DNA of 64,000 bases from an uncultured Candidatus Saccharibacteria bacterium (GCA_964409035.1 CAYPBQ010000003.1:41530-105529), one strand, 5' to 3'. Positions 30,098 to 33,626 are shown, counted from the stretch's first letter. Numbers and translations: made by a program. The notes: generated by a model from the letters alone, not told the origin.

Positions 30098-31948
30098 TTA
30101 TGCAGTAACGGCAGTCTTCCAAGTACTGATTACTGAAGGTATTTCATCTAACCATTTGCCTGCATTAGATACTGTGGAAGATTTTGTAACAATCTGCTCG
30201 TATAATTCTGACAACTGGTTGTGATTAAGAAAACCTCCTCGTTCCTTAATCGCAACAAGGGCTTTGAGTAATTCAATAAACTGACCAATCGAAATAGGGA
30301 TAATTTTTTGAGTTTTCCCCTCGTACTCATACTTAACCGATGTCCAGAAAGTGTTCACTGTATCTCTGTGAAGTTTTGGGGCAACGAATAGACAGTAGGA
30401 GGTCTTGTCGGCATTCTTATTTTCAAAATCCCTCAAGTGTCTCATTACCGGCTGTCCCTCGTTGTACCACTGGTCACGTCCAGTAAGCATGGTGACCTCG
30501 CAAATGGCATTATGCGATTCGTAATAGCATTCGATGTCAGGAGTATTTGCCGGTGCAGTAAATGTTGGTTCGTTGTCGTCACCAACTGGGTAATTTGGTT
30601 TTATCTGCAATGCGTCATTCAAAGCATTTAGTCCGAGTGAGATGTATTTTTCTAATGCTATAGGCTTATCTTCAGCTTCAAATATGTTTTCTAGGGCGGT
30701 GATATACTCTTTTATTTTCTCGACATCTTGCGAAGCATTATGATTTTCTTTGTCCTGCAAACTTCTACGATAGATACGAAGCTCTTCAACATAAGATTTA
30801 AGCTCGGTTTCAGACAAGGTTTGATATGTTAGTCGATGTGCTTGGCCTAAACCAAGTTTATTCTCGTACGCACTTATTTCCTCTATGAGCTTTTCAATAA
30901 TCTCGACAAACTTTTCTTTTGTCTCCCACGGTAGTTTTGGTTGGGTAATATCCGATACATAATTCAAGTACTCTTCCTTTGAAGTGAACACTTTTGCTTC
31001 AGAGCTGTCGTGTTGTAAAAGATTAGTTATCTCGACAGACCTTCGAGGTTCGAGGTCTATGTAGTAACCGTTGCCTCTGATATGAAAATACCTAGTTAAT
31101 CTAAAGTAACGTATAGCATTGTCGCCGTAATCATCAAGATTGCTAATCAATTTATTGACTTCCGTAGTATCATCAGTTCCAAGAAAAGCTATAGCAAAAT
31201 CACGACTGTAATTCTTCAGTATATCTTTCTTCTCTTGTTTACTTTTTCCATTCAACAAGTCTCGTAGAGCAATAATTTTATCCGCATAGGAACCGATGTC
31301 CCTGAAATGCACTAACGAAGGTACGAATAAATCAAACTCGTCCTTACTCAATCCTTTAGGCTCATTGCCACGCTCAACTTCTTTTCTATTTACCTGATCA
31401 ATCAAATGTAATGCACCGATAAATGGCTTAATGTTATAAGTTCCATCGTCTGAAAAATCATTACTGTCTGGGTTTGGAATCTGCCACTTAATAAAAAATC
31501 TGAAATAAACGTCTCCAATATCTATTTCGTTTTTTAGAAAAGCATTACCGAGGTCAGTTATTTTTATTTGACCAGAGGTTTGTTTTGCAACAGCTAACCC
31601 CATTTTAGTTAGCGGTGCTACTGATGTTCTTCCTCTTAAACCTTCATCACCACGAAGAACAGCAGAGCGACTTTTCATGTGTTCAAAAATCTCTTGAGCT
31701 TGCTCAAAAGTCATCTTATCTCCGGAAGTTTCGTAATATCCCAACAGTGCTTCTGATAGTCCTGTTGGTTGGTATAGTCGATTTTGAATTAGTAAAGTTT
31801 GGAACTTTACTTGCCCTGCTTCATCAAAAGATTCTCCGTCCATTTCTTTTAGGACATGGAGAAAAGGCAGTATTCTTTCGGGATTTCTTACAGTTGTTGA
31901 AAGTGACCAAGTTTTTTTCATAGCTAATAATTCTTTGTTACCTTGCAA
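30098..31948 (-). CDS. Putative restriction endonuclease (616 aa) of a two-methyltransferase (Type IIS-like) R-M system
   Basis: Sandwiched 3 nt/25 nt from two MTase genes in one operon; no motif recognised by eye, so the call rests on context. Confidence 0.4.
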   Translation of the reverse strand: MQGNKELLAMKKTWSLSTTVRNPERILPFLHVLKEMDGESFDEAGQVKFQTLLIQNRLYQPTGLSEALLGYYETSGDKMTFEQAQEIFEHMKSRSAVLRGDEGLRGRTSVAPLTKMGLAVAKQTSGQIKITDLGNAFLKNEIDIGDVYFRFFIKWQIPNPDSNDFSDDGTYNIKPFIGALHLIDQVNRKEVERGNEPKGLSKDEFDLFVPSLVHFRDIGSYADKIIALRDLLNGKSKQEKKDILKNYSRDFAIAFLGTDDTTEVNKLISNLDDYGDNAIRYFRLTRYFHIRGNGYYIDLEPRRSVEITNLLQHDSSEAKVFTSKEEYLNYVSDITQPKLPWETKEKFVEIIEKLIEEISAYENKLGLGQAHRLTYQTLSETELKSYVEELRIYRRSLQDKENHNASQDVEKIKEYITALENIFEAEDKPIALEKYISLGLNALNDALQIKPNYPVGDDNEPTFTAPANTPDIECYYESHNAICEVTMLTGRDQWYNEGQPVMRHLRDFENKNADKTSYCLFVAPKLHRDTVNTFWTSVKYEYEGKTQKIIPISIGQFIELLKALVAIKERGGFLNHNQLSELYEQIVTKSSTVSNAGKWLDEIPSVISTWKTAVTA

Positions 31949-33588
31949 TAAAAGACCCTCTCTGAATTACCAGAGGAATCGCTTTTGCCGGCAGTAAAAC
32001 CCTTATAATCTCGTTCGAATATCTCAACCTTGCCTCTCAATTTCAGGGTTTCGATTATGTACTTATCAGATATTGTAGCATTTGATCGGCCATTTTTCTT
32101 CTCTGCCGTATTGTTGTAGGAAAGGAGGATATGTTTAGTCTTTGCGTTAAGTATAAGGTCTCTAAAGGCCTCTGGAGCACTCTTTAGGCAGTATTTGCTC
32201 TTAATATGCGATCTATCTACCATCTTCTTTGCTACACCCAAAACAGAAGGCTTTTTCCAAGTAATTATATTTTCTAGAAGGTGGTAAGAATCTCCATATT
32301 GACGTGAGTTGTAAGGGGGGTCGATGTATAAAACATCACACTCAATTTTTCTAATGAGACTATTTGCGTCTTCTTTGTAAATCTCGTTTCTCTGGTTGTT
32401 TTGAGTGTTTATGTCAGGAACAAATAACTTTAATTCATTTGTTGTGTCGAGTGTTTTTCTGTATGCCTCATAATGGCCAACAGTATTCGCTACTTTATCT
32501 ATCGCATAAAGCAGTGAGGTTAAGAGTATTTGTTTTTCTTGTTCAGTTATATTCAGAGAATCAATTTCTTCTCTAATTGCTCCTATTTTCAGTGCATTCT
32601 TTCGGGTAAAGTATGTTCCTCCAAAGTTCTTTGAAACGTAATTATCTTTCCGTGGCTCAACATCATTTAGATAATCTATCAAGCTGTTCATTCGATCAAC
32701 ACTATATTCCTTTGTTCCTAACCAACACTGTAGACTTGTATAACTACTATCTAAAATATCATTAGAGATTAGTCTTACGTCAGGTCTATTGAAATGATTC
32801 CCAACAACCCCAGTTCCACTGAATATGTCACAAAAAGATTCATAGTTGGGACACTTATCAGCAACAATGTCTGAAATGAATCCAAGTAATTTTGATTTGT
32901 TTCCGAGAAAACGCCTGCTTTGAATCTGGAGTTTTCTCTTTGAAGCCTCACTTACTTTTGCTAGTGGGAAAAAATTTCCTCCGGTTACCAAATCAAATCT
33001 GCTTCTTACAACTCCAGTAAGTTTTCCTCTTATCTCTAAATCTCTAACAAAAATAGGTTGATAATCTCTGTTGGCCGGCTGAAGTCTATAGGAATTTCTT
33101 TCTCGAAAAATCCTCTTGAGTGTAGCCTTACCATCAATTACAGCTACTCCAATTTCACCATTGTCTACAGTTGGTTGTTCACGAATAACAACAATATCAC
33201 CATTAAAAATGTCAGCTTCCTGCATACTATGCCCTTGAACTCTTAAGGCGTAGTGATTCTGGCTTCTCGTAATGAACTCTCTTGGAACTTTTATGAGTTC
33301 AGGGTTTTCAAGAACTTCGATAGGTTCACCCGCAGAAATAAACCCAAGAAGAGGTATTTCAATAAAATTTTTATCATCAGAATTGATTTCAATAGATCGA
33401 GCAAAATTATCTTCCTTCTTAAGGAATCCTTTTTCAACCAAAGCTTGGATATGCTGATGGATAGTGGAGACTGCCGATAATTTTAATCCGGTTTTTATTT
33501 CTTCCAGAGTAGGAGGGTAATCTTTTTTCTCTATGAATCTCTCTATGAAATTTAATACTTGTTTTTGTTTTTTTGTTATAAGTTTCAT
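31924..33588 (-). CDS. Fusion protein: LexA-like repressor (wHTH + S24 autopeptidase) fused to Dam-like D12-class N6-adenine DNA methyltransferase
   Basis: N-term 'KKQKQVLNFIERFIEKKDYPPTLEEIKTGLKLSAVSTIHQHIQALVEKGFL' (LexA DNA-binding domain), cleavage site 'ISAGEP', 'GHSM' Ser, 'ATLKRI' Lys; C-term MTase motifs 'RFLGNKSKLL', motif I 'DIFSGTGVVG', motif IV 'LYIDPPYN'. Confidence 0.8.
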   Translation of the reverse strand: MKLITKKQKQVLNFIERFIEKKDYPPTLEEIKTGLKLSAVSTIHQHIQALVEKGFLKKEDNFARSIEINSDDKNFIEIPLLGFISAGEPIEVLENPELIKVPREFITRSQNHYALRVQGHSMQEADIFNGDIVVIREQPTVDNGEIGVAVIDGKATLKRIFRERNSYRLQPANRDYQPIFVRDLEIRGKLTGVVRSRFDLVTGGNFFPLAKVSEASKRKLQIQSRRFLGNKSKLLGFISDIVADKCPNYESFCDIFSGTGVVGNHFNRPDVRLISNDILDSSYTSLQCWLGTKEYSVDRMNSLIDYLNDVEPRKDNYVSKNFGGTYFTRKNALKIGAIREEIDSLNITEQEKQILLTSLLYAIDKVANTVGHYEAYRKTLDTTNELKLFVPDINTQNNQRNEIYKEDANSLIRKIECDVLYIDPPYNSRQYGDSYHLLENIITWKKPSVLGVAKKMVDRSHIKSKYCLKSAPEAFRDLILNAKTKHILLSYNNTAEKKNGRSNATISDKYIIETLKLRGKVEIFERDYKGFTAGKSDSSGNSERVFYCKVTKNY

Positions 33589-33589
33589 A

Positions 33590-33626
33590 GGTATACTTAC
33601 TCAAGTGTTACTTGAGTAAGTATACC
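33590..33626. promoter_or_regulatory. Perfect 17-bp inverted repeat (candidate operator) immediately upstream of LexA-MTase start codon
   Basis: 'GGTATACTTACTCAAGT gtt ACTTGAGTAAGTATACC' abutting the ATG (33588); followed by tandem 'TACCGAAAAT' x2 at 33623-33643. Confidence 0.6.

Follow-up and report, generated by a model that had tools for sequence, protein, structure and literature searches.

The known controls of restriction-modification (R-M) systems are C proteins, methylases that carry a helix-turn-helix (HTH), antisense RNAs and promoter methylation, and none of these, to our knowledge, senses a physiological signal. Repressors that respond to DNA damage by cleaving themselves are described for other purposes: LexA (TIGR00498; E. 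coli, B. subtilis DinR, Caulobacter) combines a winged HTH (wHTH) with an S24 domain that holds an Ala-Gly cleavage site and a Ser/Lys dyad, and the element-encoded S24 repressors lambda CI, SetR of SXT and the 434 repressor link their element to the SOS response through autocleavage stimulated by RecA*, the RecA-single-stranded DNA filament. Here we describe a gene in a 64,000-nt stretch of DNA from an uncultured Candidatus Saccharibacteria bacterium (GCA_964409035.1 CAYPBQ010000003.1:41530-105529; the whole stretch is called the window below), in which a complete LexA is fused in frame to M1, a D12-class adenine methyltransferase (MTase) that heads a Type IIS R-M operon. Comparison with its relatives suggests that the product is probably an autorepressing, RecA*-cleavable controller-methyltransferase, which would make expression of the methylase, and here of the operon, SOS-inducible.

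The fusion shares with ordinary LexA the two domains, the cleavage site and the dyad just named, a promoter that probably contains an autoregulatory operator, and an N7 spacing between TTC cores that matches the Caulobacter box. Unlike ordinary LexA, it is joined to a DNA methyltransferase, it is carried on a mobile R-M cassette as a second LexA beside that of the host, and its sole visible target in the 64-kb window is the R-M promoter. The SsoII/EcoRII/MspI-type methyltransferases likewise bear an N-terminal DNA-binding regulator on an R-M methylase, so that the promoter senses the methylase level, but theirs is a short Xre-like HTH without a protease on C5 MTases, whereas here a whole LexA with its S24 domain sits on a D12 MTase of the N6-methyladenine (m6A) class; moreover, unlike the SsoII-type HTH, the LexA module is found on four MTase families and goes with a direct-repeat operator. 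C proteins (C.PvuII, C.AhdI, C.Esp1396I) are also head-of-operon modules with an operator of their own that are exchanged between systems, and the separate-gene LexAs described below (loci L115-L117 and L027) occupy the position of a C gene. However, C proteins are ~80-aa Xre-type HTH dimers that use palindromic C-boxes and chiefly activate and then repress the endonuclease (R), whereas the LexA module has an unrelated fold, carries a putatively signal-responsive protease and is linked to the methylase (M); a Pfam scan of the fusion gave no HTH_3/Xre match. The CI, SetR and 434 repressors differ in their Xre-type HTH and in their control of lytic or transfer genes, being neither fused to an enzyme nor dedicated to R-M, and the PHROG CI-like matches to the fusion cover its S24 part only. 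Type I restriction alleviation, in which ClpXP degrades HsdR after DNA damage, might be a functional analogue in adjusting the R/M balance, but it acts by proteolysis of R and not by derepression through a cleavable repressor-methylase. Among Type IIS systems, those of BspD6I, BstNBI, PleI and MlyI (AlwI family) have a homologous full-length endonuclease and two methylases, as expected for an asymmetric site, and a LexA-fused methylase is not reported for the characterised members of this family. The system at this locus therefore looks like a cross of LexA/CI-type cleavable repressors with SsoII-type methylases or C proteins, and is a member of neither controller family, having no Xre HTH, no C-box and an MTase of another class; taken as a protein, it is a bona fide LexA homologue as well as a bona fide D12 methylase. 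In the open-access literature no description of a LexA-methylase fusion or of a LexA-controlled R-M system was found, although an account elsewhere is possible, and this agrees with the original prediction, made from the sequence of the window, that the architecture is not a described R-M controller. No LexA-type controller is among those listed in a review of R-M regulation (PMC3874152), and a review on SOS and mobile elements mentions neither a LexA-methylase fusion nor LexA-controlled R-M (PMC9578287). In databases such proteins appear simply as 'transcriptional repressor LexA' or 'adenine-specific DNA-methyltransferase'.

The fusion gene (31924..33588, minus strand, as are all parts of it given here) is one ATG-start open reading frame (ORF) of 554 aa plus a stop codon. 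The profile search placed LexA_DNA_bind (57 bits), Peptidase_S24 (99.6 bits) and MethyltransfD12 (118.7 bits, residues 227-487) in this one chain, each above its Pfam gathering cut-off, so that the predicted in-frame fusion of LexA to a D12 MTase was borne out, and the strings quoted in its favour (ISAGEP, GHSM, ATLKRI, RFLGNKSKLL, DIFSGTGVVG and DPPY) were all found in the translation. The wHTH DNA-binding domain (PF01726; residues 1-64, 33397..33588) contains the recognition helix SAVSTIHQHIQAL, which is also found in many LexAs of the candidate phyla radiation (CPR); it is followed by the S24 autocleavage/dimerisation domain (PF00717; residues 79-190, 33019..33354), by a flexible linker (residues ~196-226, 32911..33003) and by the N6-adenine methyltransferase M1 (PF02086, also PADLOC; residues 227-554, 31927..32910). 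Residues 1-196 scored 179.6 bits against the NCBIfam lexA equivalog TIGR00498 (cut-off 110.95), in a protein of 554 aa rather than ~200, and the LexA domains align to PDB 1lea, 3k2z and 7b5g. By alignment to the E. coli and T. maritima LexA structures, the predicted cleavage site A86-G87 (33328-33333), Ser121 (codon 33226-33228) and Lys158 (codon 33115-33117) stand in register with A84-G85, S119 and K156 of E. coli LexA (PDB 7b5g/1jhh), and the S24 module is thus intact, as had been claimed. A86, G87, S121 and K158 are invariant in an alignment of 38 fusion relatives with 60-80% identity, in which the recognition-helix residues S38, S41, T42, H44, Q45 and H46 are invariant as well, and the cleavage-site loop GEPIE is kept whole in the fusions; this pattern of conservation shows strong purifying selection on the cleavage apparatus. 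M1 covers the full 339-position profile of PADLOC MTase_II PDLC03373 (382 bits), and its FSGTG (the FxGxG motif for AdoMet) and its catalytic DPPY are invariant in the family. M1 is not a Dam orthologue, because it scored only 18.5 bits against the Dam subfamily model TIGR00571 (cut-off 114.85), and a PDB sequence search with the M1 domain gave no match. The AlphaFold2 model consists of three separately folded modules with a disordered linker (predicted local distance difference test, pLDDT, 23-30 at residues 196-231), and since the linker of the window protein has no Met, M1 can be produced in no form but the fusion.

When 5.8 billion proteins were searched, ~80 protein clusters (P0002-P0080) emerged with the same three domains, 60-80% identity and lengths of 554-566 aa, which come from independent NCBI, JGI, ENA and Logan assemblies. 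Their named sources are Patescibacteria/CPR (Daviesbacteria, Parcubacteria, WWE3 and others), and one of the fusions lies in a complete genome, that of WWE3 RAAC2 (CP006914). The chance that lexA and M1 were joined by a sequencing or assembly frameshift is practically nil, although an unfused (L027) and a frameshifted (L114) cassette exist and the L113 assembly is noisy with split genes, because these ~80 independent clusters share the continuous architecture, conserved residues P208, R225 and R226 of the linker bridge the junction, and 49 further fusion families carry other MTases; the comparative data refute it. The architecture is neither rare nor unique but belongs to a large family.

The 49 further fusions emerged from an HMMER search of the LexA module alone against 1.84 billion cluster representatives. 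Among its 40 best matches, 33 have a length of 295 aa or more and carry LexA in residues 1-196, and 47 such proteins are among the best 150. The partner domains were scanned in 49 long representatives with pairwise identities below 50%. LexA_DNA_bind and Peptidase_S24 are present in 49 of 49, with the Ala-Gly, Ser and Lys residues invariant throughout, and at least 43 carry a DNA MTase, namely N6_N4_Mtase (29), Eco57I/N6_Mtase with TaqI_C (~7), MethyltransfD12 (4) or C5 DNA_methylase (3). No endonuclease or other enzyme class was found as LexA partner among the 49, and the association of this LexA lineage is exclusively with methylases among the partners scanned. The closest separate LexAs of the lineage are first genes of R-M units too: at L115 and L116, the latter inside a defence island, lexA overlaps an Eco57I/MmeI-type methylase gene, and at L117 the order is lexA, methylase, HinfI endonuclease. 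Two further fusions lie beside a convergent endonuclease with its own transcription unit, a LexA-N6_N4 fusion with an MvaI/BcnI endonuclease (L113) and a LexA-Eco57I-type fusion plus a C5 methylase with an Alw26I-family endonuclease (L127). The sole housekeeping-looking lexA among the examined loci, L118, adjoins metK and a Y-family polymerase gene. At L096 (3513-4718; also L097), a LexA-M1 with an altered C-terminus is followed by a second operator copy, TTTTCGCAATGTTTTCGGTA, and by a 72-aa ORF with the LexA DNA-binding domain (DBD) only and no S24; this ORF heads a PLD/NgoFVII-type nuclease that replaces the AlwI-type endonuclease, and it has the look of an uncleavable mini-LexA that controls R in the manner of a C protein.

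The mini-LexA bears on whether the module is a constitutive autorepressor and dimerisation module, in effect a large 'C-protein', whose cleavage would be slow and RecA-independent (for example as an establishment timer) and would give no SOS input. A DBD-only mini-controller without S24 implies that DBD and operator can act as a plain controller, autoregulating HTH-methylases without a protease are established, and S24 is the dimerisation domain of LexA (PMC9578287). Dimerisation alone, however, does not demand that Ala-Gly, Ser and Lys be invariant across 38 close and 49 divergent proteins, and the module scores above the lexA equivalog cut-off with its cleavage loop kept whole, so we consider a constitutive repressor unlikely. 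The idea of a link to the SOS response is instead strengthened by these invariant residues and by the repeated joining to R-M methylases.

The candidate LexA operator of the fusion gene is a direct repeat, TTTTCGGTA-GA-TTTTCGGTA (TTTC-N7-TTTC with an 11-bp period; 33623..33642, minus strand), which runs into the -10-like hexamer TATACT (33619..33624, minus strand), with CTAACA 18 nt upstream (33643-33648), as located by a promoter scan. The DNA upstream of the fusion genes is strikingly conserved despite 60-65% protein identity and unrelated flanks, its invariant core being TTTTCG(G)TA-N2-TTTTCGGTA leading into TATA(C/A)T, and TATA(C/A)T is conserved at that position in all fusion loci. The direct repeat, with up to 3 mismatches allowed, occurs as one copy at the promoter in all 28 of 28 D12-fusion loci and is unique within the window, and the 83 non-fusion loci (779 kb) gave seven scattered 3-mismatch matches, none of them at an M1 promoter. 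The repeat recurs ahead of LexA genes in four further R-M types, the Eco57I/MmeI-type, HinfI, MvaI/BcnI and Alw26I systems. Near-identical copies lie upstream of the LexA gene at L115 and L127; the copy is CTTTCGGTT-TT-CTTTCGGTC at L117 and TGTTCGGTA-AA-TGTTCGGTA, literally GTTC-N7-GTTC, at L113; and at L116 the repeat is inverted and lies downstream of a TTGACA-17-TATAAT promoter. Because the sequence is kept while its orientation and its position relative to the promoter hexamers change, the repeat reads as an operator and not as a promoter element. Its geometry, (T/G)TTC-N7-(T/G)TTC, is the form of the Caulobacter direct-repeat SOS box, GTTCN7GTTC, which is experimentally established (PMC9578287).

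The direct repeat co-varies with the recognition helix across the loci compared. The canonical lexA of L118, with the same STIHQH helix, has the half-site as an inverted repeat, TGTTCG-N9-CGAACA; the different helix LSTAQYFIKEL of the L027 LexA goes with a different repeat, TTTATCATA-AA-TTTATCATA, in the same 9+2+9 layout; and the L107 LexA, which according to the translation is likewise a separate gene and not a fusion, has the E. coli-like helix KSPNAVQDHL and a CTGT-N8-ACAG box between TTGACA and TATAAT. We infer that the direct repeat is the binding site of the encoded LexA domain. An imperfect palindrome, TACTG-N9-CAGT, that follows the -10 hexamer in the majority clade was also considered as a common operator and was rejected, being not conserved in the window, L109, L110 and L112. 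An exact scan of viral contigs for TTTTCGGTA-NN-TTTTCGGTA returned only unrelated iteron-like arrays, and the second variant gave no match. The arrays in the IMG/VR contigs L126 (~4600-4760), L122 (~2750-2830), L121 and L123 are tandem copies of an 11-bp unit, GTTTTCGGTAC/GTTTTCGGTCG. They have no LexA gene in their vicinity and share the operator core, but are probably repeats of replication origins that bear no relation to it.

The chromosomal lexA of the host is also in the window (19317..19889, plus strand; 190 aa). It scored 111.9 bits against TIGR00498, just over the cut-off of 110.95, and has its own Ala-Gly, Ser and Lys; a Pol IV-like gene (20171-21430) comes next. The lexA promoter holds a perfect 12-2-12 palindrome, GTATACTGAACG-AA-CGTTCAGTATAC (19284-19309), which contains a Cheo-type GAAC-N4-GTTC box and can be proposed as an SOS box of this CPR lineage. 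GTATAC frames this palindrome, which stops immediately ahead of the ATG, and both features are shared by the palindrome of the R-M gene described below. A CGAAC-N6-GTTCG match at 3040-3055 was treated as chance, since it lies inside the dnaG coding sequence. The recognition helix of the host LexA, ASKNAAFSLVSKL, is unlike that of the fusion, and because both helix and box differ, the fusion is a second, element-borne LexA that is probably orthogonal in DNA binding; both proteins could still respond to the same RecA* signal. These differences, together with the lack of any other copy of the direct repeat in the 64 kb, make it very doubtful that the LexA of the element serves as a trans-acting decoy or co-repressor for the SOS regulon of the host, or that the host LexA controls the R-M promoter, in which case the system would be there to manipulate host SOS and not for R-M homeostasis, although the STIHQH helix and the TTCG half-site are common to canonical CPR lexA genes such as L118, so that cross-talk is possible in hosts of that kind.

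A second motif accompanies the operator. The DnaA-box-like 9-mer TTATCCACA lies beside it at 33656..33664 (plus strand), and a motif count found the 9-mer (up to 1 mismatch, either orientation) within 130 nt upstream in 23 of 26 LexA-R-M promoters, against 0.048 expected per window of that size; sometimes it forms an inverted pair that flanks the operator. A perfect copy of the TTATCCACA type is present at the host lexA promoter (19272-19280), 3 nt from its SOS box, and the canonical lexA of L118 has TTGTCCACA upstream. The R-M-linked module thus seems to have inherited the promoter architecture of CPR lexA. DnaA is the obvious candidate binder, and the 9-mer may tie lexA and methylase expression to DnaA or to replication status.

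The original prediction had placed the operator elsewhere, in an inverted repeat at 33590-33626. That repeat is real, a perfect 17-3-17 palindrome, GGTATACTTACTCAAGT-AAC-ACTTGAGTAAGTATACC (both strands), which is unique in the window, is matched by 0 of 100 shuffles and as RNA folds with -25.9 kcal/mol (z = -7.9). As the operator of the family it is ruled out, because L109, L110, L112 and every other relative lack it, even one with 80% protein identity, and it is thus confined to this lineage; what is conserved is the direct repeat next to it (33623-33642). The palindrome puts TATACT on both strands (33619-33624, minus strand; 33592-33597, plus strand), and it may act as an RNA hairpin, as face-to-face TATACT boxes or as an extra operator. 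The two boxes could serve as promoters for lexA-M1 and for the divergent operon that begins with a terminase-small-subunit-like gene (terS; 33690..34076, plus strand; PHROG 4102, E = 2.9e-20), and because of the TATACT on the plus strand, a rightward transcript would cross the LexA operator.

This arrangement would suit a CI-like master repressor of a prophage or satellite that silences the terS-to-integrase operon until SOS induction, with R-M as cargo. The operator lies in a 101-nt divergent region facing the terS gene, a transcript from the plus-strand box must cross it, the island ends in a serine integrase by a tRNA-Asn, and close relatives of the fusion sit among phage genes (terminase, amidase, S49 protease). 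At other loci, however, the fusion has unrelated genes upstream (one for a TPR protein, or co-oriented ones), and the operator, of which each locus has one, lies next to lexA-M1 throughout; L112 has a divergent recombinase too and yet no palindrome, and the recurring association is with methylases and not with phage lytic genes. A CI-like master repressor is thus improbable.

In the mechanism that we favour, of an autorepressing and RecA*-cleavable controller-methyltransferase, a complete LexA is tethered by a flexible linker of ~30 aa to M1 of a Type IIS M1-R-M2 operon on a small integrase/terS island. The fusion would dimerise through S24 and bind TTTTCGGTA-GA-TTTTCGGTA abutting the -10-like TATACT, as the comparative data suggest, and would shut down its own promoter in proportion to the amount of M1, a negative autoregulation like that of C proteins and SsoII-type HTH-methylases. 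When RecA-single-stranded DNA filaments form, perhaps because DNA is damaged, restricted DNA is being processed, self-restriction occurs or the element is induced, the protein that is off the DNA would cleave itself at A86-G87, as the invariant Ala-Gly, Ser and Lys imply; LexA is cleaved only when off DNA (PMC9578287). Cleavage would remove the wHTH, leave the S24-M1 part intact and derepress the promoter, and the outcome would be an SOS-inducible methylase, in this cassette with co-transcribed R and M2. What purpose this serves is a matter of speculation. We favour a feedback that raises the methylase when damage, repair or self-restriction yields RecA*, and unbalanced R-M activity itself induces SOS (PMC3874152). 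Protection of unmethylated DNA made during repair, or after self-cutting, would be the most coherent rationale and a Type II counterpart to restriction alleviation, given that LexA is invariably attached to M and not once to R, and that R in other systems has a transcription unit of its own. A general SOS boost of the whole R-M system, in this cassette with its co-transcribed R, is an equally possible if speculative purpose, as is a CI-like role for the island in view of the divergent terS.

Several points weigh against the proposal. With its place between M1 and M2, R would be induced along with them, and this sits uneasily with a rationale of more methylase. All D12 fusions form one clade, so that the promoter conservation could partly be inheritance; this worry is mitigated by the recurrence of the repeat at other R-M types and by the co-variation seen at L027. 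The direct repeat is in the -35/-10 spacer, and its conservation might partly be promoter function; the sigma-70-like match is itself weak (9/12) and no better than in shuffles. The palindrome and the DnaA-box-like motif have no explanation in the model. A recA gene was not found in the 64-kb window, and its presence elsewhere in this genome is assumed.

A wider proposal, which we put forward tentatively as a possibility, is that CPR bacteria have an undescribed LexA-derived R-M controller class of their own. It would be a portable module made up of the DnaA-box-like site, the 11-bp-period direct-repeat SOS box and lexA, fused to or directly before the methylase in at least five unrelated Type II types, and it would make methylase supply responsive to RecA*, possibly also to DnaA or replication. 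This large family comprises dozens of sub-families below 50% identity and is found above all in CPR bacteria, which largely lack CRISPR and are thought to rely on R-M for defence. If the proposed mechanism is true, R-M controllers would for the first time include one that has its own DNA-damage input, a RecA*-cleavable LexA on a methylase, Type II systems would gain a built-in circuit for 'restriction alleviation / self-damage feedback', and CPR organisms would gain a second, element-borne LexA regulon. It would bear on how Type II systems spare their host when repair or recombination makes unmethylated sites or when R and M drift. As by-products, the comparison nominates an SOS box for lineages not yet cultivated and adds a putative LexA box of the direct-repeat kind from beyond the Alphaproteobacteria.

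The rest of the operon conforms to a Type IIS system, and the fusion is its first gene, as predicted. R (30098..31921, minus strand) is a restriction, or nicking, endonuclease of the AlwI/BspD6I family (Pfam RE_AlwI, 299.6 bits; PADLOC REase_II PDLC03393, 502 bits) and a full-length homologue of N.BspD6I, the R.BspD6I large subunit (PDB 2ewf, 110 bits). M2 (29300..30094, minus strand) is a CcrM/HinfI-like N6_N4 methyltransferase (PF01555, 204.9 bits) that scored 267 bits against the NCBIfam CcrM model, under the cut-off of that model; PADLOC also gave two MTase_II matches. The M1 stop codon TAG (31924-31926) is separated by 2 nt from the R start ATG at 31921, and the gap between R and M2 is 3 nt. 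M2 after R is conserved in related cassettes, and the order M1-R-M2 was found in more than 40 loci. M1-R-M2 cassettes whose M1 has no N-terminal extension are common in both bacteria and archaea; at L027 the cassette consists of four separate genes, LexA, M1, R and M2, and L114 is a frameshifted, decaying copy.

For inference of the recognition site, site-avoidance counts were made in the island that carries the cassette (29300-37747). GAGTC/GACTC was found 0 times against 10.8 expected, and GGATG/CATCC, CTTAG/CTAAG and CTGAG/CTCAG are wholly absent too, with 10-18 copies expected for these 5-mers, a pattern that points to counterselection of several Type IIS-like sites in the element; in related cassettes, GAGTC shows no such avoidance. 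In other CPR bacteria, the same M1 (58-66% identical) is fused to a RadC module (UPF0758_N helix-hairpin-helix plus JAB; ~600 aa in all) and again heads M1-R-M2 (P0091 and P0094-P0120, e.g. P0105; loci L010 and L012). In RadC the methylase has another N-terminal module of the 'DNA-binding + peptidase-like' kind, and the LexA operator is absent from the promoters of these fusions. Two RNA elements were observed near related cassettes: a group I intron (90 bits) at 11969-12249 of L009, which in the WWE3 genome follows the cassette at a distance of ~1.7 kb, and an S-adenosylmethionine (SAM) riboswitch at 10927-11034 of L127, near the LexA-Eco57I-type locus.

The cassette lies in a low-GC island at ~29.3-37.75 kb (the GC dip spans ~28-38 kb), which holds, besides the terS-like gene, several ORFs without assignment and ends with a large phage-type serine integrase (36197..37747, plus strand; Pfam Resolvase, Recombinase and Zn_ribbon_recom; PHROG 95 integrase, 257.7 bits). 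The 3′ end of the integrase gene overlaps a tRNA-Asn (37735-37807, minus strand). Integrase genes whose 3′ end overlaps or abuts an opposite-strand tRNA recur at L001 (16903-18545) and L003 (17309-18952), which suggests that the element integrates into tRNA genes and supplies the tRNA end; relatives of the cassette adjoin serine recombinases abutting tRNAs, or the phage genes mentioned above. Between the terS-like gene and the next ORF lies a LOOT RNA (Rfam RF03000, 80.4 bits; 34121-34241, plus strand), and another is present in the element of the 80%-identical relative (L109, 3731-3848, plus strand; 73.8 bits), so this orphan RNA seems to belong to this type of serine-integrase element. The surrounding DNA is ordinary chromosome, with a partial rpoC (17-2941) and dnaG (2984-4747), and at L002-L004 the cassette likewise lies a few kb from dnaG and rpoD.

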